Shown: positions 5,255 to 54,800 of the stretch, one piece after another
How positions within the stretch are numbered: the stretch's first letter is position 1
How the letters are laid out: every line of letters begins with the position of its first letter
Assembly (NCBI GenBank): GCA_002633005.1
Contig: NMRA01000014.1
Location: 25,150-89,149 of the forward strand
Reading direction: 5' to 3'
DNA length: 64,000 nt
Origin: Phoronis australis
Taxonomy: Eukaryota > Animalia > Phoronida
Notes under the pieces: generated by a model
Seen by the model: the letters and a program-made list of their open reading frames with translations, nothing else
Database searches by the model: none
Told to the model about the DNA's origin: nothing
Program-made: the position numbers and the translations under genes

Positions 5255-22534
<17,280 letters not shown>

Positions 22535-25118
22535 GTACTACACTATAATAACATCGCCATCTTGGAACCACCATGAGATCATATTCAAAAACTAATTTTC
22601 TGGCTCATTCTCTGCAGACCACGATAATGTAACTATTAATCTGAAATTCATGAAAAAGTACTTGATGCAATCGTAGGTGGAGTAGAGAAGTTAAGGTTAT
22701 GTTCGACCGTAGTGACAACTCTGCGTGTTTAGGCAAATATCTATAAACAATAGACTTTAACTCAGTAAAAGTTTATGTTTTCTGAAACTAGAAAGCCTGA
22801 ACAATTTTAAGTTTGATTTTTTACAATGTATTTTTATTGAGTCACGTGACCATGTCTTTTTAGAAAAAATAAGAACGTTGCAGTTTTCTGAGATATTTCG
22901 TTTTCGTTTCTTACAACTTAAGAATTTTTTAATAAAAATCAAAAGACCAAGTTTTATTAGTGACCGACCCTCATGCATAAGTGGCACTTTAAAAAAAAAC
23001 AATATCTTAAAGGGAGTGGAACGCGAAAGCTCGTCAAAAATATCTTCCAAACAATTCTTGACGAACGTTCCATTTTGCAATGTCTGTACAGAGTAATTGA
23101 CTTTGCCCTTAAGTTGAAGAAATTTCCAAACAAATTACAAAACTCACGATTTTTGAAATACGATACAAAGCAAAAACTCTGTGGTTAGAACAGATTTCTA
23201 ATCTCCCTCACACTGATGATAAATGCGCGACTGCGCCCACAATCAGTTGCTTGAAGTCGCTTGAGGTCAAAAGTCACATTTTCCTTGTGGGAGAAAAATT
23301 GACGACGAAGTGGAGAACAGTTGTCAGATCGTCTTTTTGAAATTTGAAAGTACAAGAAAATAGTTTGATATCAACAGAAATTAATAATCTTTACGAACAA
23401 ACCCTAAAAATGCCTGGTTAGCTGGTTGAATTCTGTTTCAGAGGCAAAGAACTACTTTCTGTACTGCAATTTAGTCTGTTTAACGCGTTCAAGGCCTATT
23501 TAAAAGACTCGGGAGAACAATGACTAAATCATGGTCTCTGAAAGTTCCATATGGATCGGATCAGCCATTTTTCAAATATGATGTTCCAAAGTTGGCCAAG
23601 TTTGGACATTTTTCTAAGCTCCTACATAACTTAAAGAATATTTTGCACACAATTAGTTTTTGTAATGAAAGTTCGCTACATGACGAAAGAAACAAAATAT
23701 TTTATTCGCCTATGCATGTTTACAGCTATGCTACACATGTTGAAGCCAAAGTTCTGAGCTGAAGAACGCGAGGGTGGATGAAGAACTGATGTACGTTCGA
23801 ACGACGCGTATATTCGTGAAATTGAAATTCTATAATCGTTGCAATTGACAGTTTATGATTAATAAAACATTACTGCTGCCACCTAAATTATGTTACTTTG
23901 TTTTCAAATACACCAGAAGTTGATCCCAAATTTACTGTAAGACGACTAAAAGGGAAGGGAGTCGGCTGTACTTTTGACGGGTATCGGCTACGGGATATAC
24001 CCAACACCATGACTAAAAGGGACGCGTTTGTGAGCTTCTGTGAAATGGTCGTTGTTTCGAAGATGTTATTTGCCAACATAACTTTGGTGGCGGTTTCATT
24101 CCTATACAGAATGACTGAACTAAAAAAAATTGGACTGTATTCTTTTTAACGCAAGGAACTCAAAAAAACTACACCCTTATATAGGAGTTCTGTTGGGCCC
24201 CATTGTGGAGTTTCAACACCAAAAGAGAACCTTTTGAGGGAATTTAATCGAAATTAAATGCTTCGTTAAAGGCTTTCGTACAGAATCTAGTCATAAAAAC
24301 GTCACGTCAATCAACTAAGCGGCATTTCTCGCATCAGCATTTCCCCAAAGTCCCGATGCAAGTACCCCACACATGGGCGTATTAGTTGGTGAGAGGTTAC
24401 AGGGAACAATCGCTCCTCCTCCTCCCCCCCCAGATTGGAGGAAAATTATAGAAAGTTGTGGCAAAACAAGAAACAATTTGGCATCAGAACATCCAATGGA
24501 AAACGGACGGAAAATATTGCGCAAGCTACATCGACTGAATGCAGATTTGACGGTGACGCGCCTAAATTCAGAAAATTTCTACCCCCCCCGTGGATTACCT
24601 CGCTAGACCTAATTGAAAAACAAGCAGCAACTGATGCTATTGCCAGGGCCCCTATTCAACAGATTCCCAATTTAAATCATGCGACATACAATTCAAGTTA
24701 AAAACAACAGCAACGCGGAGGGTTGAAGTGCACCCACGACTGCACCGCAAACGGTGTTGCAACTAGGAGTGTTTGTTAGTACAATAAAATGGTCCTTATA
24801 CACCACAGAATACATTGAACCCATCCGAAAATAGGAAGGTGTCGTCTCTCAAAGCTATTAGCCAAATTTCATGAAAATCTGTGAAAAACTCCAAAGACAC
24901 AAAGACAAATGTAAAAAAGATATAAATTTCCATTAGGAACCACAGCGGTAGTCGAATCCGTCGACCTGTGGTCAAGTTCATTGAAATGCAATTGCAAAGT
25001 TTCAAAAACATCTTGCAAGGGGTTTAGGAGATACAGCTGTGGATGCAAAAATGTCTCAAGTGGTTGGACTCGTCTGAAAATCCACGTCAGTCATGCTCTT
25101 GTCGATAGGAACACATCT

Positions 25119-27370: not shown

Positions 27371-28457
27371 GCCAACTGCAAATGCTCATGTTGAGTTGAA
27401 AGGACACAAAATGTGGTCCTGTCAATATTTCATTAAGAAAGAAATTTTCATGCAAAATGCAGTAAGTTGCAAACTCTACTTTACCATTCAGTCAACTCTT
27501 AAAAGGAAAGCACAAAATGTTCCGAGAGACAACTAGAGTGGGCAACCTAGAGTAAGAAAAAAGAATTTTTTCCATACATACACACACATAACAATATTTC
27601 TAACATTAAATCAATAATCACTACTAAAAGTACATATAAAACCACCGATAGTGTAATGCATGCACACATGTTGATGAAGAGTCAAATTAGTGACTAGTAA
27701 TGTTATTCAGTAACAACATGTGCAGTGTAAATACTACATAGATAAATACAGAGACAGCTAGTTACTACAAAGATAGAAATTCAACGATTACTGAATACAC
27801 ATAAATCAAAAATTAAAAAAAAAATTATAACAGGGCATGAATATTATTCTGACATCAAAACTGGCCATATGATCACCACCATTTAGAGCAAGGCAAGGAT
27901 AAAGTAACAGGTCATGATACAGCTGAAGTGGGTCAGACACAACAGCAACTAACAAACAACCTATACTACAGGTATGTTTATCATTTATCTTCACACACTT
28001 TCAATAAATATCACGATAATCATACATAAACACAGTATTCACAAATAACTTTGAAAGTACTCATATATTAAAAACGTGACGGAATATTTTGAAAGTATTA
28101 TAGTCAAGTTAAAGATATGGATGAAACTTATCTTCAAACACTTTCAGGAAATATCACACTACAATAAAAAGCAAACGCGTGCAATACACACATCTTACAA
28201 AGTGAACGCCTGTAATACACACATCTTATAAAGCTATAACTGATAAATTTCAAAGTATATAAATTATATTCATTAGTAAATATATGAATATCTTCATGAA
28301 ACATATTCAAACTGTTGTGTTCAAGCCTAGACAAATTAAAAAAAACCCACCAGGTGGTCCAGACTCCACCCTATAATAGGTGCTTTGAAGATAACATAAC
28401 GCCAGTGCTGTGTAACCTGTCACAAATTAACGCCAGTGCTGCGTAACCTGTCACAAA

Positions 28458-31400
28458 CTAGTTGTTATTGTTCTGTTTCTGTTCAAAGAACATGAAGTCC
28501 TGTGAAAGAAAAAATAGAAGGAAAACATCAAAACATGAAAATATGTTCTTTATGAATGCAGGAACATTTTTGTTTAAGAAGTTACGCCACAATCACACTG
28601 ACATGATTTATAGGTGTGGTGAGCTACAGCGCTAGAAATCATGGTGAACAGCAAAACCAGCGACACGCATACTCCATCTAAGCTAACTGTGACACAGTAA
28701 ATACTAGTTACCGAAGCTCAACCGTTTATCGTGCATACCAAAGCTCCATTGTGGATTGTGCATACCGAAGCTCCACTGTGGACCATGCATACCAAAGTTC
28801 CACCATGAATCGTGCCTACCAGAGCCCCAACATAGACCGTGCATACCAAAGCCCCCCCCATGGGCCGTGCGTACTAAAGCTCCACCATGCACCAAGCATA
28901 CAAAAGCTCCATCATGGACTGTGCATACCAAAGCTCCCCATGGACCGTGCACACCAAAACTCCACCATACACCATGCAAACTAAAGCTCCACAATGGACC
29001 GCGCATACCAAAACTCCACAATGGACCGTGCATACCAAAGCTCCACCATGGACCGTGCATATCAAAGCTCCACAATGGACTGCGCATACCAAAGTTCCAC
29101 CATGGACCGTGCATACCAAAGCTCCATCATTGCGTGTATACCAACTAAGGGCTGTGAACACAGAAGCTGTAACATCACCCTAACCACCATACAATGTCTA
29201 CAGGACTGCTGTACACATTGCTGTCACAAACTGTAGGCATCTGCGAGTGACCGTGACAACCATTAGCAAACTTTTGTGTGTCTAAATTACTTCAAAGTTT
29301 TGAAATTAGTCTTGGTCATCTTGTTTTCCTGCCAAAGCCTCTCTTCTGATGATGGTGTTTGAATAAATGACATCGAAACATGTCAAATCCATTTAAACCA
29401 TTGTTTTCTTTAACAAAGCCTTTTGGTTTTGCTATAATGGTTTATGGTTAACTGGGTTGCACTGTGGTCCACTCTGATAGTCGGACTTAAGGACAACGCT
29501 GATAATTTCAAATCAAGTAGGACTTTTTGTGCCATATTTATTCTGAAAACATTTTATGAAACCATGTTGTCTTGGGTGATAATTGTGTCATATTCACATA
29601 ACATACACATAATGTGACAATTCCTTTTCTGTAATACGAGACATAAAGATCTCAACAGGAAGTCAATGGTTAAAATGGAATTGTAACATAAAACTGGTGT
29701 AATGTAAAATTAAAATCAAATGATTTGTCAACGTGTAACTCTATCAGTGGTAGACTGGCAAGAGCACAGTCACTCAACATTCCACAAACGTAGTCACATG
29801 TTGATGAACCATTTGATTTGGATGCACATTTTACCCATACTTGCTTTTCATTTTTGTTTTAATTGAGTGCTCTAACAAGTAATAATTAATTTTTCACCTC
29901 ACTAGTTACCAAAACGAATTTAATGATTCCAGCCATAGAAAGACCTCATGGTAACACATTCCACAAGTTTTTAAGAAAACATTTTCACAGCGTGTAATAA
30001 GCTTATATTAAATTACTAAAGTCATTATCAGTATGAAAAAGTAGGTAAATCCGGAGATACTTACAATGAGGAAAACCAGTCCAAGCATAGTAGCTTTTAT
30101 TTTTACATCCAAGTCCATAGGAACTGAAACGAACAAAGCTTTGGAATTAAAACCCATCTTTTGAAGTGCCGTTGTATTTGGCACATTTCATTTCTTGTTA
30201 TTTCATCTTAGTCACACAATTATTCATAACATCAACACGGCCAAACACATGAGTTTAACTTTGTAACACAAAGGACTACTAACAAGACGTGAAGTTTTAC
30301 ATAAACAACAAATAGCTTCAAAAATAAGTCCATTTACTTCACAACAACTGAGCAGAACACAAGAGGAGAATGGGTCGACTTGAATGTTAATGATAAAAGA
30401 AATGCAGCAGTACTCAGGGGCGGATCCAGGATTTCGAGTTGGGGGGGCTAGAGCACAGGAATAACCAGAATTTTGGCAGATGCGCGCGTCCAGCCTAGAA
30501 TGTAGGGATACAGGGGTATCGAATTTTTGGGTCTGTGGACCTTCTGACTAAAAAAAAAACGTAAACGGGGTTTGTTCAGGACCTATGCATTGTTTACTCA
30601 CCCCCCGAACCCCCTGGTTGCGGGCATATGCTAGTCAGCAATTCGCACCCGAACTCCCAAATGGTATATGGTAGAATTTTAGGGGGGGCCATGGCTCCCT
30701 TGACACCCCCTAAATCTGCCACTGGTACTTACACGTGACTCCAAAATTATCAGCTTGAGTGAAGTACTCCTTAATCAGTCCAGACCACTGTTTGCTGATT
30801 TTTCCAACATCATGGCTTTCATCAGCTGATCTCACCTACAATAATGCATTTTCATCAGCTGATCTCACCTACAATAATGCATTTTCATCAGCTGATCTCA
30901 CCTACAATAATTCATTTTCATCAGCTGATCTCACCTACAACAATGCATTATCATCAGCTGATCTCACCTACAATAATGCATTATCATCAGCTGATCTCAC
31001 CTACAATAATGCATTATCATCAGCTGATCTCACCTACAATAATGCATTTTCATCAGCTGATCTCACCTACAATAATGCATTTTCACATCAGACTTTTCAC
31101 ATAACATCTTATGTAGCAAAAGATATACCAATAAAAAACACTTTGGTATTTGTAGCCTAATGATGTAACAGACACAACATGATGTTTGAAGCCTATAGAC
31201 TGTACTGTAATAGCTAAAAAACAAAATGAATTCTTGGTTCCAAGGAGCCTTTATATCAAAGTGATTTAAGACGTAAGTAAAAAATTTGGGCTTATGCTCC
31301 ACACAATTTCTGAAAAAATAATGAAAACTCACGATAGCAAAAAGAAGAAGTATCTGAGAATATAGCCACAACTGTTAATAATTACTCACAACATTTGTAC

Positions 31401-34400
31401 AAATTATTTCTAGTCGATGATCCGGTAATAATTACATGACTAATTGTGTATTCGGTAATTATGAAGTGAGAGGTTGAGACCATATTTCTGTCTTAAGTCT
31501 TATTAAGTCACTTTTCATGTAACAGATCCTAGATGCACGTGATATAAAGACCTAAAAACACAATGAATATTAAAATCTAAACCACCCGGGGTGTAAATGA
31601 GTGAAAACAAATCTTGAAAAATCACTTGTGGAGGAAATGTTAGCATTAACTTTCCAGGTATATGAGTCAAGTTAATATGATTGTGTTATTCCACTGTTGT
31701 TCCCATATTGGACAAGGTAAGAGTAATATACAGTTTGCCAATGTTTATAAGGGTGTTCTACACATTAGAATAACTTTTGTACAAAAACAACAAAAATAGA
31801 GATTTAGCAGTCTAAGTATCAGGCTTCACTTGACAGTTCTGAATATTTTTAATGTTATTCCTAGTTGAATTTCGGTCCTATACAAATACAACAGAAACCC
31901 TGTCAAATAAATGCTGAATGTTCATAGGCCAGCACTGTCAGCCCTCAGACATCTACACTAACTTACAATGAACTCCTGATCCCAGGTACAGCAAGGACCC
32001 TGACAGATACACACTGGGCCTTCGCAGGTCAACACTGTCTGTCCTTGAGCATCCATGATCTTGTACTTGGGAGCCAGACAGCTTACTCTATAAGAAAATA
32101 CATCGAATGCCTAAATGGCACACTGAAACATGATGATTAGCAAATAATTTCCAAACTAATTGTACTCCTAAGTATGTGAAGTGATTTTGTATGAGTGAGG
32201 TGGGTATGATATTACTAACAATTCAATAGGCTGAAAACTGAAAACAGAAAATGAAAATATCTCACCAGGAGTCTTAATAAGTTATGATGCCAGGCCACAT
32301 AAAAGAGAGGGTGACACAAAAGTCCCACATAAAAGAGAGGGCGACACAAAAGGCCCACACACAAGAGAGGGTGACACAAAAGGCCCACATAAAAGAGAGG
32401 GTGACACAAAAGGCCCCTTTCCATACACTTAACTCCACTACTATCGAACCTTCCATGTTAACAGTGGTTAACTTTGAAGCTTTAATTTAAACGCATTACC
32501 ATTCCCATCAGCTTCCCAGTTATTTACACAACCACTTCATCAGAGTTATTGTAAGTTGGCACTAAGAAGAGCTATACCTAGTACACGTTGTACTGTCAAC
32601 TGCTTGTCTTACATTTTAAATCAGTTATTACATTATTTGACCAAACAGTAAATATTAACCAGTCATTGCTCGCTGCTGGCAAACACGTGAAGCATGCCGA
32701 TAACTTCGGTGGTATCCACATTGAGCATTCCCATTGTTGCATGCATTAGTCTTTTGTTGTTAAATCCACCTCTACATTCCAGAGTAAACTCGTGCTGTTT
32801 ATTTCCATCTAAGACCAAAGTTAAGTGTTCCCACTGACCAAAACTATGCTAACACGGAAACTTCAGAGCCACTGAGAAAGTTTGAACTGAACACATCAAA
32901 ACAAGTGTGTGAAGGAAACTCAGCACTAACTAACGCTTAAATGTCACAACATCAGCGATAGAACATTTAAGACACTTTGTGACAAGTTGGGCTTAGTATG
33001 CAGTAATCTTCCATTGTCTCAGTTATGAGCAGGCATAAAAAGACCAGCCAACAAAAAGCACTTAACGCATGGTGTACTTGTCCCAAATAGACACTCACGT
33101 TTGTTTGACATATCCAACAACTTGTCCGGGGGGTGACTCAACTGAGATCTCCATAGCACAGCAGTCCATTCCTGCACAACAGTTACCGCCACCACAGCAC
33201 TTAAACTCTCTGTTGATCAGGATCACCTCCTAGAAAAATTCAATGTCAAGACAGTATACTTTCAGTTTAGCACAGCTAAAATTTGAGCAATTTTCCAATT
33301 TTTGTTTCCATAAATCAACCAAAAAGTTGTTCAATTCATCATGGCCAAGACGCCGTCGGATACACACTACACAACTGTCACTACAGTAGGATCAAAAACC
33401 TAAGATACATCTGTATTGTAGACCTATGTCACATATCAAATTATAACTAAACATGATAAAAAATTACAACTAAGTGTAGCAGACAATATAGTCAGCTTTA
33501 CTTGGTTCATGTTGTCAGTGACGTGCATCTGGAAGCCTCTCTGTGGCCCACAACACTGCCTCATACACATGTCTGACTCTGCAACCAAACGAACAAAAAC
33601 ATATTAATAAATAATGACACTAAACAAGTTTAGAACCAATAAAATAATGAAAAGTTCCATAACAACCAAACACTTAACATACCTTGACAGTTCTATATGA
33701 TAACTCCGTGACTTGTTCACAAACTAAAAACAAATGACACTTCATGGCACTGCTAGCACTCTCCATGTGTGAACAAACATCAATTCTCAAATAAAAATAT
33801 GAAAAATATTAATGACAGCACCTGTGACACTCGTCATAACAACAAAAGCTACTCATGTTTTCATACAAGAATACTGTGTAAACATTGTTAAAGACATGAC
33901 AGTTTGCTCAGTCATACAGTCAGGCACTTTTTAATTCAATGGCAATTACAGGCTTTTGCAAAAATCTATCAGCTGTGCTAAACACCATGAAATATCAACT
34001 GGACAAAGTACACACATACCTTCTTGTGCAAAATACACCTGCTGCCCAAGGGAGTTCTTTATCTGATATCTGTTCTTGGTTTCCCAGTTTGTAAAAGCTA
34101 AAATGTACAAATTATTTTAAAAACATTTCCAATATTTTTGAACAAAAAATCTACAAAACAGAGAAAATCAAATTTCATGAGAGTTGAAATAATGACCTTA
34201 TTGTGAAAACGCAGCCACTAGCAAGATAGATGGGTTCAAATGCATACTAAGACATTGACAACAAGTTGTCGGTGAAATTCTGAAGCAAAGTGGGTTGAAA
34301 TTCAGGATCATTAAACCAATATTTCACTGTGACCAAACAAATTCTTTCCATTGAATGGATGCATAGATGACTACATCTACATCTAACACTCAACAAAAAA

Positions 34401-37400
34401 ATTAATAATTACCCAGTAATGCTATGCATGTTTCTCATTATTTATTAAAATTACAGACACAAATAAATGCCTGAAATAAGAACCTCAACCAAACTTAAAC
34501 ATAATTTGGGAGATTTCATCTACAATGCTGTTGTCACTTTTCAAATGCACTCCGTTGTAACAGTTGTGGGCATATGAACCTCTGTTGACTTCACAGTGCG
34601 TGTAAGCTGATTTGTAAATTGCATTTTAGATGGTAAGATTTAACTTCAGTATGATCAGATGTGAGCCTCACAGCAGTGTTTCCCCTGGGCTTCGAAAAGA
34701 GTGTACAGTGGTGGTAATTGGTCCCAGTGGGAAGCAAAGCCTGTTGCTGCACGTGAATATGGGAAGTGGGATCCCCTATTCCCTGGGCTTCAAAAGAAGG
34801 TGAATAGTCACAGTGGATGTAGAGCCCAGCACTGCAAAGAAAAGCCATTGTGTGATCTCATCAATTAAAGATGTGTTAGGAAGTGGACACGCCAGGTTAG
34901 GGCTTCAGACTACTCATCAAAATTGAATTCACCAGCTCTAGGCACCCACATAGATGCTATCTAATTCTGTTTAGATCTGTTCTATTATATTTTTGCTCAA
35001 CGTAAATCAGTTGGATAGGTGTTAGCCAACACAGCAGACAATTTATTCATCCATTCCATGCCGATCACTACTGAGAGAACTAGATTGATTTCTGATTCAT
35101 TAAACTATTCATACAACATAATTCTCATTGTTGTACAACCTCTTCTGTAAATGTGAACAAACTAAAATTAATAAAATTTACCTTTTCTCTACTGTTTCAT
35201 AAGTGCTCACAGGTGCTTTGCCATTTTAGAAAAATAATTTCACGGTTGTTGTCTAGTCCCCAATTGTATTCAACTGCTGTGCATTCTCAGAAAACCAGGC
35301 AGTACCGAATGTCAGTTAGGTCACTAAGCAACCCCGAGGAAGGAAGGGTATAAAATGATTATGTTGAAAAAGGGGAAATGTTCAAAATCTGATTAAATTG
35401 TTTTTCCCTTTCAATCCACAAACATTGACAGTAGCCATGTAACTTGTGTATTGCATATTCATTTTTACAAGCAATTTTTGCATAGTGTTGAAGTTTTCCA
35501 GTCAGGATTAGGTAGGTGGTGGTCAATTTAGGGAATTTACAAGAGGCTGGGACACAAAGGAGCATGGTGAGCCATCCAGATTTGTACACGTGGGCCAGGA
35601 AATGCTGCCTCAGAGAACTTTTGGCACAAACGATTTCATTGGTAATCTATGTATACTTAACTTTCAATGCATTTTGAGGTTCGCTCTCAGTCTTTTATTT
35701 GTGTATGACAGTAGCTTTTTCAGCATGTTGCAGTTAACCTGACTGTGCTTTCAATATTAGGTGTCATCAAGTGACAGATGTTGTGTTTCAACATATTTTT
35801 ACATGTCACCAAGTTATCTGTAATGTCACAATGTACTGTTTTTCATTTGCAGGCTGGCACGTGCATTATTTTATGTACTGTCAGTTAGATGAAGTAAACA
35901 ATTTAAGAAACATCCCACAATGCATCTGAAATATGACAGCAGCGACGAAGATAAAATCCCCGAATTAACCTGCATAGTTACACTTACAGTTCACACGCCA
36001 TCTTAACTTCCATCTAAAAGGTTTAAATATAGAAACAAGCAAATTCAAATTAGTTTATTAAAACATGTACGTTTGATTGTTGAAACACTGTAATGCTTGA
36101 AGAAAGCAAATTGGTCAACAAGCTGACGAACCTTCAAAGAGCTCCACCTGTTGGTGAACAAGAAGTTGGTCAATCTGTGTCAGATATTCCAGCCCAGGAG
36201 GACAGCCAGCTACATCTGGTTTTTGCATCCAGACAGGACCTTGGGGCTGACCAGCCATGCCTAGGTAAGTGGAGAGGAACACCAAGATGAGAGAGCAGTA
36301 AGTACCTATCTTCCCATTGAATGATTATAATATTACCAGATACCACAAAAAGCAAATCTAAACAAATGAGACAATACTAACATGTACCATATCAGAGACT
36401 ACGTAAAGACAAACTGGATTATAAAATATCCTAATTAATATCACGAAAAAATAATCCTTTCCCATTAAACCCAATGGCATGTAAATAATCCCACTGCTAT
36501 AAACAATGTCTCTGTCACTCAGGTCACTGTGTCTGTGATATAAGTCGCCGACTCTAGCCATTCTCAGGCTACTACAAACTAAACAATCCCTAAATCCAAC
36601 GTAATTGAGTTCTCTAACAACCCAGCTTGTTGTAGAATACTCGTCGATGAGAAGAAGTGACGACAATTTTAGGAAACCAGCACGAAAACAGCTGTAGAGC
36701 AAATCCTCACAGCAAGATCAAACGCAGACAAAAATGGCAGGAAATTCTTAACCCCCTAAACATCAGTTCACGAGTAGGGCACGACTAATTAATAAAATTA
36801 CGGGAAGCCGTAATTACCCGAAACATCTGCCTGGGATAATCAATAAATCGAGTTTTTACTAAAAATGACATGAAAAAAGATTGCCTTCTCCTTTAATGAC
36901 ATGTCACACCTGTTTGAGTGAATCTCATGTAGTTCACAGTACATGGGCGACGCAGCACTGAAAAAAGTGGGGGGCTATAGCCCCCCAACCTCCCCTATGG
37001 TGCGCCGCCCATGCTGTAAGCAGTGTGTTATTATTTTACATATAAGTGACTATTTGAATGCACCTAGAACACATTGGGGAAGAATTTACATACTCATAAC
37101 TAAAATAGAAACATGAGTCCAATTGTACATAGTAGTCATTACTTGAGTCATCAAGTCACACTGGTCAATAAAAAGAAAATATATACTGGATGCTTCAGTC
37201 CAGTGTCTTCAAGTACACTCGACTGTCTCATTTTAGTTACCTGGTTGCATCTGGAACATTGGCTGGCCTTGAGGTGGCGGTCCACCATACGGTGCTCCAT
37301 AACCCTGGGGTGGTTGTCCATAGCCCTGCTGTGGTGGGGCATAGCCCTGGGGGGGTGGGGCATAGCCCTGAGGGGGTGCCGCATAGCCCTGAGGGGGTGC

Positions 37401-40400
37401 GGCATAGCCCTGAGGGGCTGCATAGCCCTGAGGAGGTGCAGCATAGCCCTGTGGTGGGGCACCATACCCCTGGGGAGGCACGCCTGGCTGACCTGCGAAT
37501 TATAAGACAAAGGCGAATTCAGATTTTTTTCCACACAAGAAATTAAATGAAAATGATTCTAAACCTTGTTTGTCAATCATGTACAATGTGATGTGTGATG
37601 CCTATACTAGGTTTGCGTTCGCTGCTCGTCAGCTCACCATTGGCAAATTCAGAGCGGCACTGGCTATAGTGGAGCTAAGTCCATTTGCCAACTTGGCGAA
37701 TGCTTCTGCAACTTGACAACGTAAGTTAATTTTGGGAAACCCACTCGCATGTTGACACACAGTCAGCTCGAATCAAGTCGCGCTGCAACAGTCATTTTTA
37801 CTTTAATTCCAAGTCCTAAAAATAGCAAGCGAATGTTCCATTTCATGTCTGACATTTCCCCTGAAATAACTCTTTTACAAGAACAAAATGTTCAACTGTG
37901 GGGGGTCAGCACTCTTGGTAATGTCGATTTCTTCCTTCATAGTGAGATCTCGTGTAGGTGCTGCCGCTTGTCGTCTGCAAGTGACAATGCTAAAACGATG
38001 AAAGCATATGAATAATGAAGTTACAGTATTTTGATGTAACCAGTACATGCTTTGCTCTGTGGAAACTAATCCATGCAGTCAGACACTGTTCCAAAACAGA
38101 TGGCCTGATAAGGGCTACTGAATACCAAGTGATAGATCTTGAGCCCATCATTACAGGCTAATAATAAAATGTAGACCTTAAGCCATCCAGGAATGTTGGT
38201 GATATTAACAGTTAAAACTGTTGTACTAGATTACCTTTTCTTCTTCCTAGATCTTTGGAGACCTCTTGTCTCCTTCGATAGGATGTTGACTTGATGAGCC
38301 GCAGGAACACTGGTCACATGGGATGTCGAAACTGGCTCAATATTCTCGTTCCAGGATGAGGACAATTTGAGTCTGGCGCCATCTAGTTTGTTGAAAGAAG
38401 GCTGTAGTGCTGTGATGTAAATAGTCTCCTGCATACGTCTCTCAAACCAGTTCTTTTCTCTGCACAGCATCTCAACATTTTCATTACTAAACTAATAAGT
38501 GTGTTCATGCAGTTGATTATTAAATAAACACGGGTTATTGCAGAGCCAGAAAATGTGACAATGACTAGTCATGTAAGAAATAACCCGTGTTTATTTATAA
38601 TGGCGATCTGTAGAAGTGTTCACAGGGACTGTAGGCTGGAGGTTGCCATATTGAGAACAGCCGGTGCCACCTATAGGGGAACATAGTGAGCCCTCTAGTG
38701 GCCGATTATCTAATTATTCACAGCTAATGAACAGAACTGGGTTGAGAGACATGTGCTAGAGGCTCTTTACATCACAGCTCCACAGCTTTCTCTCAACGAA
38801 CTACGTGGCACCAGATTCAAATTGTCCTCGTCTTGGAACAAGAGGCAATATCGCGATCCAACGTGACCAGAGTTCCCACGCCTCATCACATCCCATCGAA
38901 GGAGATTAGAGGTGTCCAAAGATGAAGAAAATCTGGAAGGTAATCCAGCAGACCAGTTTTAACTGTTAATACCATTATAAGGCAATGTTACATAACGACA
39001 CTGGCATGACAACTGTCTGGGACATATTTTGAGTTCCAATATGTTGTCAAATGTAATGAAGCCCATGAGGAAACTACAATGTTCATCAGCAAGGCTTCAC
39101 TTCCACCAGCTTTGACACTGAGTCCACATGTAAATGTCACTAAATAATTTCATGAAAACAATATATATTTGCAGTTGCAAGAAAATTGGCAGAGTAAACA
39201 ACCATGTTTTAATTGGCAGAGTAAACAACTATGTTTTAATTGGCAGAGTAAACAACCATGTTTTAATTGGCAGAGTAAACAACCATGTTTAAATTCCCCT
39301 AAAGAGCAGTCGTAACTATCGCCATTATCATGACTATACAAAACGTACTTTTCTAACCCCTCCTTCCTCACAAACGTGGATGGTTTGGATTTAGAAGACA
39401 ACAGTCATTCACAAAAAAGTGAGTAATGCTTGAAAGTTCAGTTTTCATCTACTTGTTGACATCTTATTAAAATGAAACCATCACTTTCAAACAATCTTCC
39501 AAGTCTTGAAGTAAAAAAGCAATTAAAACAAAGCATTGAACATTGAATTTTGGCCTTTTCCAAAAAGCCATTTTTATAATTTCCACAGCAAGCCTCCATA
39601 ATTCCCTCCCCCAACCCAAAAGCATGCTAGCAGCAAGCTTCCCTACACTCCTCCCCAAAGAGTATGTGATTGTCGCGTGAAAATGACAATAATTATGTAT
39701 GGTTTGAAAAACAAAACATTTTCATTGAGCTGACAAGCACCAAAATTCAAATACCTCGGTAATATGCAAATGTGTCGCTAAAATTTAAAGTGCATGTAGC
39801 TTTAAAACAAAATAGTGTTTCAGTTGAAAGCTGGTGGTAAGTGATGCACAATGCAAATATTTTCAAAACAACAAATTCACACCACCACCAACGAAATTTC
39901 ACTCCATGCACAGATAATTAACCAGACATTGATATCAGCTGGTATCACTCGGTGGACACTAACAACATGGAGAACACATCTTACCTGGCTGTTGATACTG
40001 TACCGCAGGCACTGGGTGAAGAGGAAATAATTACTCTGATATACTGTTTACTATAAAGGCTGTCTTTTTCTATTATGGTTTAAGCCTGAACGTGTCATCA
40101 ACTTTTAAGGCAGATTATTTTGTGTTAAATTTTAACATTTACCTTCACAACCTCTCATTTGTTACCAATATTAAGCTTTATTTGACGTTAGTTTAATGCA
40201 ACACATTTGTATTCCTATAGTAGATTTACAATGCAATAAAATGTCACCAATATGGTCGACAAGCAGAATTTTATTTCATTTGACCCCCCCCGAGTGGCCA
40301 GCACACTCACTCAGGTAAAATCAACATTCCTAAGCAAAAGTCATGCCCATACACATTTACCTGATGGCATTGAGCTAAGAAATGCCCAACGATACAATAA

Positions 40401-40796
40401 GTTAGTTTTCAGGTGTTTTTTTGACGGACTTCAACATATAACCTGTTTGAAACCCCCATAGAAATCTGACGTCACATGCTGTCTGCACATACAACAAAGA
40501 AGTTTTGGCAGAGTGTGCTGAAGATCAGATCAGCTGATTTGATTTAACTTTTAAGCTTTAATACATAAGCGGTTTACTTTGCTTCCAATGTTATCTATTA
40601 AAAATATAGGCAAAACTCTACATAAACATACAAACTTCACACTATTAAGTAAGTTTGAGTTAAATTTTCACAAAACAATGAAATTCCAAGAATGTCACTA
40701 CGTGAACACACAATGATCTTTGGAAAGATAAAAAGAGGATGATAAGTTGGGTGTTTTACCTTGAGCTTGGGGTTGTCCTTCAACTGGAGCACTCAT
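28458..40796 (-). CDS. PLSCR: Phospholipid scramblase (PLSCR family), 351 aa. Complement join: 40760..40796,39985..40011,37241..37492,36132..36260,34020..34097,33502..33578,33099..33229,31967..32087,30733..30835,30065..30123,28458..28499
   Basis: Pro/Gln/Gly/Tyr-rich N-terminus, then [59 protein letters not shown], a Cys cluster, [64 protein letters not shown]. All introns are GT-AG, phases are consistent and the total is 1056 nt. Confidence 0.95.
28725..29128. repeat. 27-bp minisatellite (ggaccgtgcataccaaagctccaccat)n, about 15 units
   Basis: Seen directly; the 9-aa periodic ORFs in all frames are by-products. Confidence 0.95.
30415..30724. mobile_element. Non-autonomous DNA transposon, 5-bp TSD GTACT, inserted 8 nt from a PLSCR donor
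   Basis: gtact|caggggcggatcc...aaatctgccactg|gtact. Confidence 0.9.
30817..31080 (-). repeat. 33-bp tandem repeat x8 spanning a PLSCR splice acceptor
   Basis: Minus-strand unit atgcattattgtag|gtgagatcagctgatgaaa; the last unit provides the first 19 nt of exon 30733-30835. Confidence 0.95.
32294..32416. repeat. 30-bp tandem repeat x4
   Basis: ccacataaaagagagggtgacacaaaaggc units. Confidence 0.9.
36942..37013. mobile_element. 72-bp mini DNA element (TSD cagta/ctgta, one mismatch)
   Basis: catgggcgacgca...tgcgccgcccatg TIRs; homologous to 25119-25190. Confidence 0.8.
38198..38975. mobile_element. Inverted pair of Penelope-like GIY-YIG 3' fragments (38198-38490 minus; about 38725-38975 plus)
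   Basis: [31 protein letters not shown] resembles the PLE endonuclease C-terminus (ILDRE..WFER.VKEAIYI....PSLN.D.G); the second copy is a diverged reverse complement. Confidence 0.75.
39183..39291. repeat. 27-bp tandem repeat x4
   Basis: aattggcagagtaaacaaccatgtttt units. Confidence 0.92.
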
Positions 40797-41789: not shown

Positions 41790-43435
41790 CACCTTAATGG
41801 ACGAGTAAGTCCCAAACAAGATAACTTTACAAGATAGCTCTACATTCATACCGGTAAAGGGTTCTTTAGTTGTAGACTACATTCTTACGCAACATGAAAA
41901 TTTACCTCATCTTAAATGCCAATTGTCATATACCGTTTGATTTTACTTTATTTCTGTTTCTGTTGACGAAGGACGTTATTATATTCGGAAATTTCAGTTG
42001 ATCCGTTCTTGTTGTTTTATTTACCTATTTATTTCAAATTGTCTGAAATTTCAAATTGATTCATACAAAAAACTGGTAGACAAATTTGATCTTTTCAGTG
42101 AGCTTTCTGGTGTTTGCCATATACCAGATTATTCTTTACTTGTCCTCAATTCTTATGTGCATTGTAACGGCAACTTTTCACATTTAAAATAAGTTGGCAT
42201 TGGTTTTCCAAAGAGATATAACATGCACTCAATTCCCAAAGGCTTTATAAAAATAAAATTTTTAATACGGCTATAAGAGAATTGATTCATTTTGCATTTT
42301 GGCGTGTAAAGCAACACAAGAAAACATTGACAATATGCACATTATGTTTTGTAAGAATATACTTGATGAGATGGACATTTTGCTATAACTCAAAGAACAT
42401 GAAAGAAAATTTAAAGCGAGCAAATCCTATTGATGTGCTGAATTGTCCGAGCTTCTGAAAGCTGTAAGTTTCATGGAAAAAAGGTTTCTGAAATGCAGCG
42501 GCTCTTGAGAAGAATGCTCTTTACTTGGACGCCAAATTCAAAATGCTCAGGTACCATTTGAAAAATTTCACAGGAGAACCGAAAGAAAATTTTTTAGAGA
42601 TGAAGCTGACCATATAGAATCTGACTTCAGTAACCCAACAGAATTTTGGAAGTATATTAAGAATTAAGGCCCTGTGAGGATACCTGTGGAGGTATATGAT
42701 GATACTGGTCATGTTATTACCCATAACCAATAACCAATACATTTTTAATAAATGGAAGAATGAGTATGAATCATTATACAATAGGCCAATTGTAAATAAT
42801 TTTGACCAGGAATTTTATGCTGACATGCTTCTCAAAAAAGCTGATCTCGAGTCGTTTTATAATCTTGACTTTGATGAAAATAGTATTTTGAATAAAAATA
42901 TTACAGACGAAGAAGTAAAGCAGGTAGTGACGAAATCTAAATATAATAAAGCAGTAGGAATTGAACAAATATGTGTTGAACAATAGACTGGGTATGCGGA
43001 AGGAAATGGGCTCCTTGTTGATAAGCAAAATTATGGCTTTCGTCGTGACAGAGCATGTGTTGATCATGTCTTTGTTTTGACCTCAGTTATTTGCAACCGC
43101 TTGAATAACAAAAAGCCAGCATTTGCAACTTTTACTGGGTAGACAGAAAAAAATTCTTTTTGAAACACTGGATCTGAAGATAGATGGGAAGTTTTATGAA
43201 TTAGTATAAAATAACTATGCCGCAACTCAGTCCTGCGTTAAAATGAATAATACCTTTATGGACTGGTTTTATGCTTCAAACAAGGAGACATTTTATCTCC
43301 AACTCTTTTTGCACTATTCATAAATGATTCGGCAACGGAATTAAAACAATTAAAGTTAGGAATTCTTAATGGTGCTGAAAATGTTTCAGCTTTATTCTAT
43401 GCGGATGATATAGTAGTACTCGCCGAGAGTGCTGT
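41790..43435 (+). mobile_element. Decayed non-LTR retrotransposon (APE endonuclease + RT remnants, CR1/L2-group-like)
   Basis: Fragments LNGRV..DNFT, VVDYIL, QNYGFRRDRACVDHVFVL, QGDILSPTLFALFIND and LFYADDIVVLAES, with stops and frameshifts. Confidence 0.88.
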
Positions 43436-44451
43436 CTTTGTCACACTGGTCAGGTCGAAACCGAAGTACATTTTTTGTTTGAATATCTGTTTTTCTTCCA
43501 TTTACCAGAAATACCTTTTACTCTCAAGCTGTGATTAAATATCCATGTTTTTGTGCTGAATGCTACAAAAGTAAATTACTTAACATTATGCAAACAGAGA
43601 TTATCTGGAAAACTGTATTCTTCATGAAAAATACTAAAGGTACGGAAAATTTTTAGTTTATGTATGATCACTCTCTCACTGTTTCCTTTTTGATTCTCTT
43701 GCTTGTGATGCAATGCGTGTACACTACTTGTTTTTTCCAAGCGACTTATAATAGGGCTTGGAATGACCCATGACAAAAAAGAGGAAATTTTTTACTGCTT
43801 CATTATAGTACATTGCAATCTGAACAACTACATTAACAGATCGAAAGTAAACATTATTATCACAAGATGCCCTATAACTGTGTCATGTTGGGGAAACGCA
43901 CCCATCACAAGCGGGGACAGATTGCAATCATCACCAAACAGCAGTATCTGACATCTATTTCAGTACCAAAGATGAAGGCAATTAGATGCAACAAAAGATA
44001 TTTTTTTTTAATTTAAAACAATTTAATGATGCAACATTTGTAGTGTGAGTGACAGAAGCTTATTTTTTGATTTTTGATTTGCTGCAGAGAGACCTATAAA
44101 ATTATTTTCAGTCCTTATAATTACGATATAAAATTATAAAAATTTTGAAAATCGATCCAGATTATATGGAAAGCCTGAAATACATACGCGTTTAATTCCA
44201 ACGCAAATGGAAAAAAGTCAAGAAGAAAACCTGTGGCACATACCCCAACTGTTAGCATAAAAAATGAAAGTCAAAAAACAACATAACGAGAGAAAAAAGC
44301 GGAAATCTGGATTTCCGCTGAAAATTCCAAGCCTTGTTATAAGCCCCGTGGTGGGCTCGGTGTTCCTGTTTTGTTATTTGTTGCTTTGTTTCATCATGAA
44401 GACCACATGTCACAATAATGAAAATTTACTTACTTTTACTTAATACTTACT

Positions 44452-49896: not shown

Positions 49897-51834
49897 CAAA
49901 ACCTAAAAGCAACAATACTTTCAATGGAGACACGGTAAAGCAAGTTTTTAAAGTGATTAAAAAGTCGGGGACACCGCGTGGGTGACACCAACTCTGATTT
50001 TGCGCCTGTCGCAGATCCTTCTCTCTCTGACTCCGGGCATTTTAATTAGCCCCTCGACGATGCTGGCATCCGTACCAGAAGGCAATGTAATTATAATATT
50101 CCAATAAATAGGACAGATTACAGGAAAAATATATTCATACCTAGACCAGTCGGGGACTGAAATAACTTGCCGGGACACATTACATCCGCCCCTTCTCTTG
50201 ACATCTTTGTAAGCAAGCTACTTGCCTTTCTGAAGTAACATAGTCATAGTCTGTAGACAGTGACCCCCGTCACTAGCTAACTAGAGACAGTGTAGCTCCT
50301 ATAGTATTCGGAAGATTTTTGGTGAAGTACGCCTTCATAGTCTAGTGCTTCCCACTTACGGTCTGCCTTATCTGTAAACGACCTAGCTATGTTAACCGAT
50401 CTCTGAAGTGACGTCCACTGTGTATATATTTTTAAACTTGCAATAGTTGTTTTCATATTTGTTGATCTTCATTTTTATACACTGAAAATACTCTGCGAAG
50501 AGTGTGGTTTTTTGAAGAAACAAGAAGAAGATGATGATGATTGAGAATATTTTATAACCACTAGGCACTATGCAGGGCTTCTGACGAGAAGGGTGGACAA
50601 GACTGAAGGTGGCTGGAAACTCGCGACTTGTTTTGTGTTCCTCGGCTCAGCCATTGCCAGCTAGCATGGGAGCTTATTTCAATCTGTTAGAACATATCTC
50701 TAGTATACACCACATTTGTAAAATAAGGAGTAGTGCACATTGTTACACGTACATGCTGTAACATACTGCACCAGAAGTGAGTTTTGGATACGCTGGAAGT
50801 CTGTCGAAACAAAGCTCAACACTGACAACAGCTCATGGCATTCGGAAATAATCAGTGTCATACAGAATTACAATGAGCCTACAAGAGATTTGTTGTTGTC
50901 AGCCAGAATCCTCTTGGTTCATTTTGTCGCAGATGTGAGGTATGAGGTTTGAGCTAATTTGTGTTCGCAAACAAATTTCCAACTAGTACCATTCACATAC
51001 CAATCGGTAGTACACTAAACATGTCAACCCAGCCCACGGCAAATACATGGGAAGATGGTGACTGAAACAACCTATGTACTAGCACTCGTAGCGTTGAAAT
51101 AAATGAGCAAGTCTCTCTTTGTGAGTAAATATTTTGCTGAGACAACGGAAATCTATTTATTTCAAAACCCCTTGGTTGTATTTTGATGGTCTTTGGCTCT
51201 AAGGTGCAAAGTATGGCTTGGTTGATATACATATCACTTTTTAATTTTCCCTGTCCTTGGGGCTTATAGGGCTGCAACACCTCTTAGTTGCTATTTAGGT
51301 CTCGACAGAGGGCTTTTTAGTACTTTTTAGGAGAAGAGCATTTCCGTATGATACATGTATTTAGAGAACTTATTGATGGCTGTTAATGAAACGTGACTCA
51401 TATGTTTGTGTTGACACCAATCGATTTTCACAGCAGCAGCACCCTTCAGTAGCCATTTTGGTAGACCAAGGGGCATTTCACTATTGTTTGAAGGAAAAGC
51501 AATTCTGGATGTTGTCTAGAGAACAGCTTGATGAATTTTAATGAAGCTAAAAACAGGGGTATGTGAGGGCAATGTGTTGGGTCCATTCAATTTTTCGGAA
51601 GGATTTGACAACTTCAGCTACCCTTTAAATGACCCACTATCACTCACAGCAAAAATATACAAAGGATCAACAACTCTGATATCATCATAAAGTGTTTGCA
51701 CAGGCCCAATTTGGCACCTTTGTGGGCGTGGGAGCAGTAAGTCGACACTTTCAATATCTGATGCAATTTTTCCTCAACAGATAATTTTTGGTAGTGCTTC
51801 AAGCGTCTATCATTTATGTTTTTGTGACTTTCAG

Positions 51835-54800
51835 ATGACAGAGAAGCCAGTTTCAGGGAACCCTCTTGAGCAGTTCCTTATTTTAGCTAAGGCAGCAAAA
51901 GGTGCTGCTGCCGTCGGCCTCATTAAGCAGGCTCTGGAATCACCTGGCATCTACGTGTTTGGAGAATTGCTCGACCTAACTAACATTCAGGAGGTGAGCC
52001 AATTGTGGAGGTGGGGGGGGGGGCAGTGTGGTGGGCCTGTGGCACACCAACGTATTGCCAGTGATTTAAATCACTCTTTGTGTAGGCCTAGTGGTTGGTT
52101 GCTTACCTGTAAAAGAGTCCTTGGGTACCTCGTCATGGGGAAATATCCTTCGTAAAAGTCCTTGGGTTGCACAACTGGTGCAAAATAGTGGGAGGCTATG
52201 TTCACCAGTTGGTGCTTATGAACAAATGTTCATGTTTTAAACACCTGAATAGACTGAGAGCAGAAAACCATTCATCAGCCTGGGGGCAACTGTGGGCGGT
52301 CCCATGTGATTATTTAATTGCAATTGCAAATATTTGTATAGGTAAGACAGTTGTCACACTAGCACCACCTAGTGAGTTTGAAGTTCCAATTCTATTGTAA
52401 GAACACACTTCTACATGACTGGATGTAATTGCATGAAAAATTGCTGCTCAACATGAATCTGTTGAAGTTAATTAAAATTCTAATAAATTAACACTGTCCC
52501 CCACTTATTCTTTGTTTAATGATTTTATGAATTGTACAATAATGTCACACTAAGTATTAAAATAATGGAAGAACTGCATCTATGCGTTCATAATGTATTT
52601 ATTTTAAACTAGAGACAACGAGGATATTTTCCATATGTGCTGAGGGGTTTGACCTTAGTTCTTAACTTCAAAAAATGTTTCAAAAATATGCATTAAAGAA
52701 CGTCTTTAAGTTGGTCTTACATTACAGTTTCACATTTGTGTAGTAACTTTAAGTTGGTCTTACATTACAGTTTCACATATGTGCAGTCCGGCCATGTATA
52801 CTAAGGGCCTACTCATAAGTTTCTAGGCTGAGTGGGGGAAGTAGGATACCATCTTGTTGCATGACTTGTTATAAGGTCTATAGCTTTGCGTGTGGAAAAC
52901 CAGGGCTGAGTTGTGAAAGCAACGGAAGTTAGTGTAATCATGTACATCAATTGTAATATGATATCTCGTGAAGTATTGCATGAGAATGCATTTTAGTGAA
53001 GTTCTCGCATCTATGAGAGGCATAGCTCTGCTCTGTAGACACGGAAATCTTAAGAAGGAAGCTCATGTGGTCACGTACTTCACTTGCAGTACATGGCGAT
53101 ATCTCGTGAACTATTGCATGAGAATGCATTTTTGGTGAAGTTCTTGCATCAATGAAAAGCATAGAGCTCTTTGTGTTTTGTAGACATGAAAGTCTTATGA
53201 AGGAAGGTCGTGTGGTCACAGGCTTTACTTGCAGTACATGGCCATATTTGTGAAGTCTTGTGTGATCTTACATTTTTGTACGGTTCTCGAGTCTGCAGAA
53301 TGCAAGCCGGACCAAGATTTTATAAACTTTGGGCAGATTCCTGCTGTGCCGAATTAGGTTAGCTTTGTGGCGCCAAGGGAAGTAAGACAAACATCCTTTC
53401 TTCTGATCTCCCAAAAGGTTCAGTTTTTGCTTAATGTCTCTGTAGTTGAATCTGACATGAATACTTTGTGTGATCTACTGTTTAACTTAGATTTATGATT
53501 ATTGTTGCAGTTAGAAAAGGGAGAGCATGCTCCATACTTTCATCTGCTGTCGCTGTTTGCTTATGGAACATATGGTGATTACAAAGGTGAGTCTGGTGTA
53601 TTTAAGTGTGGTGTGTTTAGGTCTGGTGTAGAACCATCTTTGAAAAACTTTCAAGTTTATTTTGGAGGTTTTAGAAATTAATCATTTCTCTGTGCTGGTT
53701 TCTCCAAGAAATCAGTGATCTCCCAAGGTGCAAGACTTGTCTGTGTACATCAATGTGCGACAACAATGAATTTTTTGTTCCCTTGTGTCTGGAGCATTAT
53801 TTATTTTGCTTCCCACTTTTTACCAGATGCAGTTAAAATGGCAATGAACTGAGCTCTGCAAATGAAACTAACTTTGATTTAGGTCACTTGCCGATAATAC
53901 TGATTTGAACCGTCTTGTTCCTTTGGGAAGCGGTTTTTGGACTTGGAAAGAAGTGAAGTTCGTCAGAGCTTAAGACCATTTACAGCACATAAAGTGACTT
54001 ACTGTGACAAGCCAACATGTGTCAGGTTTTTCCGCTAGAAACCATGATCTCTGATTTTGACTGGGAACTATTTGACACCACTTTTTTGTAATTATTGTAA
54101 ATCAAAAATAGCTTTGATGTGGATTTTCCTTCACTTCGTTTTTTTTCAGACAACTATGATAACTTACCCAAGCTGTCGCCTCCAATGTTGACAAAGCTAA
54201 GGCATCTTACATTAATCTCCTTGGCAACAAAAGACAAGTGCATTCCCTACAGTGTCTTACTACAAGAACTTGACCTAAAGAATCTTCGCGAGTTGGAAGT
54301 CAGTATACTTTGTGTTTGTTCACTTATGTATGTTATTGTTCATATTCCATAGAGTAGGCCTTTGAAAGGAGGACTGTTTGTCAGAAGACCATCACACTAG
54401 TGGTTATGAAATTAGATGGATATACTTGTAATGTCAGACGCTATTCTCCTCATGTCCCAAACAAATTTTTTGTACTGATTTGGTTACCATAGCAAATTTG
54501 AGTTAGACTGAACATTTTAGAAAATTTCCAAAAGGTTCAACTGAATGTGATGCAGGTTAATTAAGTGAAATTGACACATGTGAAGGAAGCAGTCATGACT
54601 GCAATGATTTGGGTCACAGTAGAAGTCTAGAAAATCCACGAGCAGCCTTTTGTGTAGTGGCTTTGAAATGGTTAATGATTTGGGATGATTGTATTGTTCT
54701 TGAAATACAGTGTTTCAATGTATGCTAATCCCTCAGATATTAAGTTCTGTAGAAAGAAGTGGAGACTGTGACATGAATGATTATATTTGATTTCAGGACA

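Follow-up and report, generated by a model that had tools for sequence, protein, structure and literature searches.

Eight tandem 3′ splice sites, with only the last joined in the RNA reads seen, in a scramblase gene of Phoronis australis

The scramblase locus and its surroundings

The DNA analysed here, referred to as the window, is a 64,000-nt stretch from Phoronis australis (Phoronida; GCA_002633005.1, contig NMRA01000014.1, 25,150 to 89,149 of the forward strand), and it carries on its minus strand a phospholipid scramblase gene in which a minisatellite overlies the start of one coding exon. The hand-read exon model of this gene, with an N-terminus rich in Pro, Gly and Tyr, translates without stops, and all six exons tested matched PF03803 (four at or above the curated cut-off) at profile positions that follow exon order (8-34, 36-60, 62-86, 87-123, 127-160 and 163-193). 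Because exon 7 (127-160) is followed in the profile by exon 8 (163-193), there is no room for an insert between them. Two scramblase junctions, 33099-32087 and 31967-30835, were seen in RNA, and we infer the remaining ones. The main features, all on the minus strand, are as follows.

28458..40796 (−): phospholipid scramblase (PLSCR-type) gene, 10 coding exons, 342 aa (exon model, Pfam, RNA)
31967..32087 (−): exon 7, 121 nt, last base 31967; its donor GT (31966-31965) opens a 1131-nt intron (sequence, RNA, Pfam)
30733..30835 (−): exon 8, 103 nt, starting with GTGAGA and ending at the donor GTAAGT (exon model; Pfam match contiguous with exon 7)
30817..31085 (−): 33-bp minisatellite, 8 copies, the 7 extra units amounting to 231 bp (TRF, sequence)
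30836..30837 (−): productive acceptor AG, in the last copy (RNA consensus of 12, 20 and 50 reads, plus one contig)
30869..31068 (−): seven decoy acceptors (sequence, translation; unused in the RNA reads seen)

Several other features lie nearby. A 31-bp duplication directly follows the scramblase stop codon (28397-28457, minus strand) and a second 31-bp pair occupies the presumed 3′ untranslated region (28174-28233); a mobile-like element of about 310 bp (30415-30724), with an identical 5 bases on either side, sits 8 nt past the exon 8 donor and has a 77% inverted relative at 9858-10193. On the plus strand, an intron-rich gene at 11527-22545 combines a WSC domain with GH9 cellulase exons and is likely an endogenous animal cellulase, presumably a single gene; exons of COP9 signalosome subunit 7 are found at 51691-56391, with three internal tandem repeats that, by reading, are not junction-derived; and a reverse transcriptase fragment (PF00078) at 43251-43535 is likely a decayed retroelement.

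The array, its signals and its use in RNA

Tandem repeat detection (TRF) gave the minisatellite a period of 33, 8.2 copies and 97% matches, and an eight-copy array at this identity is no chance match. Each unit consists of the last 15 nt of intron 7 and the first 18 nt of exon 8, spanning the exon–intron boundary. Three of the eight units, the last included, share the sequence of the last, and the other five each have one base changed; the units bear three distinct variants, and the array has no N within 14 kb on either side. The initial annotation had described eight AG|GTGAG acceptors at 33-bp spacing, and all eight AGs are indeed present, one in every unit, with the G at 31067, 31034, 31001, 30968, 30935, 30902, 30869 and 30836. 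The longer signal TAG|GTGAGA is likewise kept in all eight units, 33 bp apart, and the GTGAGA at the start of exon 8 is the ancestral AG|GT. A decayed ninth copy upstream of the array was considered and rejected (1267 of 5000 shuffles and 88 of 649 genomic windows scored equally well).

The same TAG has several roles, since each decoy TAG doubles as an in-frame stop for the preceding unit and TAG|GTGAGA also resembles a donor. A retained unit therefore reads as 11 codons ending in TAG (8/8 copies), and translation bears out the proposal that splicing to any of the first seven AGs would give VRSAD(E/D)N(A/E)LL followed by TAG: the product would have 285 aa instead of 342, its stop preceding the last junction by 162-360 nt. 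We take the part so lost to hold the scramblase C-terminal helix.

Two branch-like motifs frame the array.

31087..31091 (−): CTGAT, branch-like, in unique intron sequence, A at −22 from the first AG
30854..30858 (−): exon-derived CTGAT, A at −20 from the last AG

A branch-like ctgAt had been placed about 19 nt upstream of each acceptor, and the motif is there, with the A of CTGAT at −20 for units 2-8 and at −22 before unit 1. By position and sequence, the CTGAT at 31087..31091 is likely the branch site that predates the duplication. The CTGAT at 30854..30858, copied from exon codons, probably serves the productive acceptor as branch site today, no other YTNAY lying within 50 nt of that acceptor. 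Among the nine acceptors of the gene, the productive one scores lowest for its pyrimidine tract (0.41; 0.59-0.91 for the others), and its unit is identical to those of two decoys. Local signals do not single out the last acceptor.

The claim that each junction regenerates a strong donor held for the genomic sequence and failed for the spliced one. Genomic TAG|GTGAGA has 6/11 consensus matches and a predicted pairing energy with U1 of −9.5 kcal/mol; the site regenerated after splicing, ATT|GTGAGA, has 4/11 matches and a predicted −4.4 kcal/mol, weaker than eight of the nine native donors of the gene (these energies are predictions from a U1 motif, not an assay). The native donors have 6-9 of 11 consensus matches, with 8/11 for the exon 8 donor. 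Weak U1 pairing was also predicted for the scramblase donors at 33502 and 36132 on the minus strand (−3.0 and −5.1 kcal/mol, respectively).

The sequence sets listed comprised four DNA contig sets (one sample), X5 (a probable RNA contig set from another sample, study P2) and the raw RNA runs X6-X8 (one study, chosen by species label; steady-state libraries, not nascent RNA), with about 18-19% of each raw run searched. Reads and contigs of X5-X8 were placed on window positions 31034-32290, that is, the donor, the intron and the first array unit, and a splice joint was listed only with at least three supporting reads. The copy number of eight is that of the assembly.

In X6, X7 and X8, respectively, 27, 46 and 131 reads were placed, among which 12, 20 and 50 (82 in total) were listed as leaving the donor at 31967. 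The consensus of their loose ends at 31965 equals window positions 30833-30804, the product of the last acceptor, with an agreement of 1 in each run; the acceptor at 30836 is thus the one joined to this donor in all three steady-state libraries. No joint from the donor to the first array unit was listed in X6-X8 (31034-32290, threshold of at least three reads), and the depth on the first unit (31034-31075) was 1, 0.33 and 0 against exon depths of 19, 31 and 97. Decoy and productive products begin with 17-19 shared bases, after which they differ at 11-13 positions within the first 32 of the exon; given median loose lengths of 56-78, at least half of the reads can distinguish the two. The upper 95% bound on decoy junctions is accordingly 3.6% if all 82 reads are informative and 7.0% if half are. 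No transcript with a retained array unit occurred among the reads placed on 31034-32290, nor any intermediate junction from exon 7 to a decoy among the 82 listed reads, the libraries not being nascent RNA. Array-type reads amounted to a single sense-strand read in X6 and none in X8.

The second sample contributed both kinds of sequence: X5 contains an 805-nt contig with the productive junction (depth 28.4) and a 63-nt contig of head-to-tail units (depth 10.8), so that at least two tandem acceptors are present there. Mis-assembly had been raised as a possible source of the array; the head-to-tail unit junction recurs in this contig, so the repeat does not stem from assembly alone. The depth of 10.8 could reflect collapsed pre-mRNA or DNA, or else a share of RNA that retains the array. 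The suggestion that the spliceosome either skips seven acceptors or re-splices recursively matches the RNA in its first half, the reads seen joining only 30836; its second half is unlikely, given the weak regenerated donor and the lack of intermediates among the listed steady-state reads. The RNA reads seen use only the last acceptor; decoy use could be hidden by nonsense-mediated decay (NMD) or by intermediates that are short-lived.

Junction-derived repeats in the neighbouring gene and in other systems

Duplication across an exon–intron junction is not rare here, as the neighbouring WSC-GH9 gene contains two further junction-derived repeats, both on the donor side. At 20064-20640 (plus strand) lies a 46-bp donor-side mirage that has the genuine exon end at 20075 as its first unit; G|GT at the real donor is replaced by G|CA or G|CT in the five clean copies, and 0 of 2000 shuffles reached the score of each of five units. 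At 19010-19249 (plus strand) lies a diverged duplicate of a GH9 exon's 3′ half (the exon's real donor is at 18924; 0 of 1000 shuffles reached the score of the exon-end copy), the last 42 bp of which have grown into four units, each reading G|CT instead of G|GT. In the copies of both repeats, degenerate late units excepted, the GT of the real donor has thus given way to CT or CA, which hints at selection against decoy donors, two cases proving nothing.

The two GH9 repeats indicate that this class of mutation recurs here. Enrichment of junction-spanning arrays is unproven: TRF returned 38 rows for the 64-kb window, and 2 of 10 other arrays spanned a junction against about 0.6 expected (P ~0.11, a rough count that assumed a guessed 20 GH9 junctions and omitted the coding repeat, one microsatellite, one copied array and a 1.1-kb duplication). 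The latter, a 91% tandem duplication at 14832-17039 (plus strand) that holds a GH9 exon end and its donor, was dropped as a junction repeat; since an N at 15967 immediately precedes its second copy, it probably reflects two alleles that overlap in the assembly.

The scramblase array is a mirage minisatellite, a class with precedents, in that it spans the boundary, keeps the splice signals and leaves splicing undisturbed in the reads seen. Minisatellite-like duplications of intron–exon boundaries, with signals kept and regular splicing undisturbed, were described in amphioxus (PMC3087553; comparisons here and below draw on excerpts of the cited papers), with further cases in Adh, troponin C and PGBD5 (PMC3902484). 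Like the mirages of Adh3, BflGb6/BflGb9, troponin C and PGBD5, the scramblase array consists of border-spanning tandem copies, many of the amphioxus ones with AG/GT; like that of the globin BflGb6, it is on the acceptor side, and its 33-bp unit falls inside the 10-72-bp range of Adh3 units. Length polymorphism is a feature of amphioxus mirages (PMC3087553). Unlike the amphioxus mirages as excerpted, the scramblase array keeps all eight AGs at 97% identity and has a donor-like sequence at every junction, and its unit is palindromic, copies 15 intron bases and amounts to 11 codons ending in a stop.

Human genes supply two close parallels. In CBS 844ins68, a duplicated intron/exon junction creates two identical 3′ splice sites (termed donors in PMC2630376), of which the distal one is used, yielding normal mRNA (PMC2630376, PMC1802585). 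That insertion adds one 68-bp copy, as against seven extra 33-bp copies in the scramblase gene, and its distal choice is promoted by G runs between the sites, whereas the scramblase unit has no G run. In the 37-bp variable repeat of F7 intron 7, which PMC1557585 groups with those of IFI6, CBS intron 13, LMNB2 and PDGF, 5-9 identical sites are in competition, and splicing is confined to the one next to the real exon (PMC1557585). The F7 repeat is on the donor side, with the most upstream site winning, whereas the scramblase array is on the acceptor side, with the most downstream site winning; these opposite winning ends fit selection by the real exon rather than plain 5′-to-3′ scanning.

Two further systems resemble the array in part. 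Like recursive splice sites and RS-exons, it combines an AG|GT junction with a donor-like site downstream (PMC6224609), and unlike the recursive sites described there, its regenerated donor is weak, its intron is only 1131 nt long and no intermediate was seen. With the Rogers model of intron gain by AGGT tandem duplication (for example, ATP2A1), in which coding sequence is duplicated and exon is left on both sides (PMC3265369), it shares the duplicated AGGT motif; in contrast to that model, the scramblase copies lengthen an existing intron and a retained unit carries a stop.

Origin of the array and choice of acceptor

The array measures 269 bp, or 8 × 33 + 5, and the extra 5 nt form a direct repeat.

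31081..31085 (−): TGAAA, matched at 30817-30821

This word flanks the ancestral unit at both ends, once in the intron and once in the exon, and from its placement the pair is likely the seed of the first duplication. The array would have been born by slippage or unequal crossover between the two TGAAA words, 33 bp apart, and expanded later. We consider it probable (at about 0.68) that the array is a mirage minisatellite which the gene tolerates, rather than a control switch, the RNA reads seen joining the donor only to the last copy. The last acceptor would win in one step through cross-exon definition, because it alone precedes the full 103-nt exon and its donor, each decoy being followed by 18 nt of exon. 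The original branch site would thereby be lost to the winning acceptor, with the exon-derived CTGAT at −20 standing in for it, a substitution that would have made the duplication survivable. NMD would likely remove the rare mis-spliced transcripts, whose stop would lie 162-360 nt ahead of the last junction. The mirage, CBS 844ins68 and F7 precedents behave alike in this respect. Against it, the acceptor with the poorest pyrimidine tract, identical to two decoys, is nevertheless the one that wins, and early globin duplication experiments excerpted in PMC1557585 conflict as to proximal or distal choice. A loop bringing the original branch A to the last AG occurred in only 6-13 of 1000 sampled structures and was discarded as the means of selection.

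Splice-site choice could also reside in the RNA fold, and each unit contains the elements for it.

30821..30850 (−): two palindromes per unit, 10 nt in the exon part (30821-30830) and 8 nt in the intron part (30843-30850)

Both palindromes recur along the array and could pair between copies, so that a hairpin would hide the decoys while the terminal copy, at the edge of the stem beside the exon, is opened. The array region has a predicted minimum free energy of −110.5 kcal/mol (z −8.5 against dinucleotide shuffles, a value that is overstated because the shuffles break the repeat); in a fairer control, only 5 of 200 arrays of shuffled units folded as well, and the shuffle counts were the lowest among the 15 arrays of the window (0/60 and 1/60, in a post hoc comparison of 30 strand-array combinations). 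Stable structure can mask splice signals (PMC4699367, in excerpt), and the A-to-T variant present in three of the eight units extends the intron-side palindrome to 12 nt, while the unit 6 variant breaks a palindrome. The folds, however, do not favour the site that is used: the last 7 nt of the real acceptor were open in only 5, 14 and 117 of 1000 sampled structures at 15, 25 and 37 °C, and two decoys were open more often (decoy 5, 182/1000 at 37 °C; decoy 3, 55/1000 at 25 °C). We therefore regard masking by the fold as a rather improbable explanation of the choice. In these models, folding may dampen the decoys and alone does not choose the winner; self-masking could add to exon definition, not replace it. 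A more elaborate version, in which the hairpin would explain why the eight AGs are intact when the neighbouring GH9 repeats have lost their GT, and copy number would set which acceptor is unpaired, giving an NMD-linked dial on output, is decidedly unlikely. A narrow open-access search found no paper on self-masking mirages; the supplementary mirage alignments of PMC3087553 may show similar features.

Leaky splicing, in which a real share of transcripts would use the decoys and be destroyed by NMD, with copy number tuning scramblase output, seems to us decidedly unlikely as well. Every decoy product has its stop 162-360 nt before the last junction, X5 includes the array contig at depth 10.8, and one sense-strand array read was found in X6; in addition, human IFI6 (6-16) and CBS intron 13 use two pseudo-donors besides the real one (PMC1557585, in excerpt), and tandem repeats can shift splicing generally (PMC10078293). 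The 82 listed reads, on the other hand, included no decoy junction, and the deepest run had zero depth on the first unit.

Recursive rescue would instead run from the donor to an upstream AG, regenerate ATT|GTGAGA and re-splice to 30836, second introns of 66-231 nt being possible, and is very unlikely because the donor regenerated after splicing is weak. AG|GT junctions with a donor-like site 33 nt downstream do have the anatomy of RS-exons, and the mature RNA would be indistinguishable from that of direct splicing. Efficient recursive splicing, however, requires a strong regenerated donor that outcompetes the downstream 5′ site (PMC6224609, in excerpt), and here the regenerated site (4/11 matches, predicted −4.4 kcal/mol) faces internal rivals with 6/11 matches and a predicted −9.5 kcal/mol. 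Splicing to 30836 creates ATT|GTGAGA as well, and even so the listed reads carry on into exon 8; in human cells, donors of this kind are repressed by the exon junction complex (same excerpt); and the 82 reads, from libraries that are not nascent RNA, included no intermediate junction.

We give little credence to the eight-copy allele being private to the assembled individual, or over-counted, with the RNA animals having few or no extra copies, a case in which clean splicing would say little about the array. Minisatellites vary in length (PMC3087553, in excerpt), and the assembly has single-N joins, one of them beside the probable overlap artefact. The second sample, however, combines a head-to-tail junction with the productive splice (the array contig aligns as the window's own units would at 31034, with 15 loose and 2 other letters, whose identity is deduced), X6 yielded one array-type read, and the array is N-free within 14 kb with units bearing three distinct variants.

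Intron gain in progress by AGGT duplication, as the initial annotation had proposed, is not supported: the array repeats a pre-existing junction, and gain would be blocked, as exon sequence left between any two of its junctions terminates at an in-frame TAG. PMC3087553 (in excerpt) puts forward, as a hypothesis, that new introns could arise from mirages; one change of the stop codon per unit could open an in-frame microexon, and none of the eight copies has such a change.

Tolerated mirage minisatellites such as we take this one to be are an already known class, and the scramblase locus is an added example that changes no textbook. It nonetheless offers a compact natural test of 3′ splice-site choice, with eight near-identical acceptors, each accompanied by a branch-like motif; as the farthest acceptor is the one seen in RNA, selection was not by scanning from the original branch site to the first array AG. 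A single scramblase minigene would be enough to separate exon definition, RNA folding and recursive splicing. Junction-spanning minisatellites recur in this genome and, if copy number alters productive mRNA, would be an overlooked source of expression variation.
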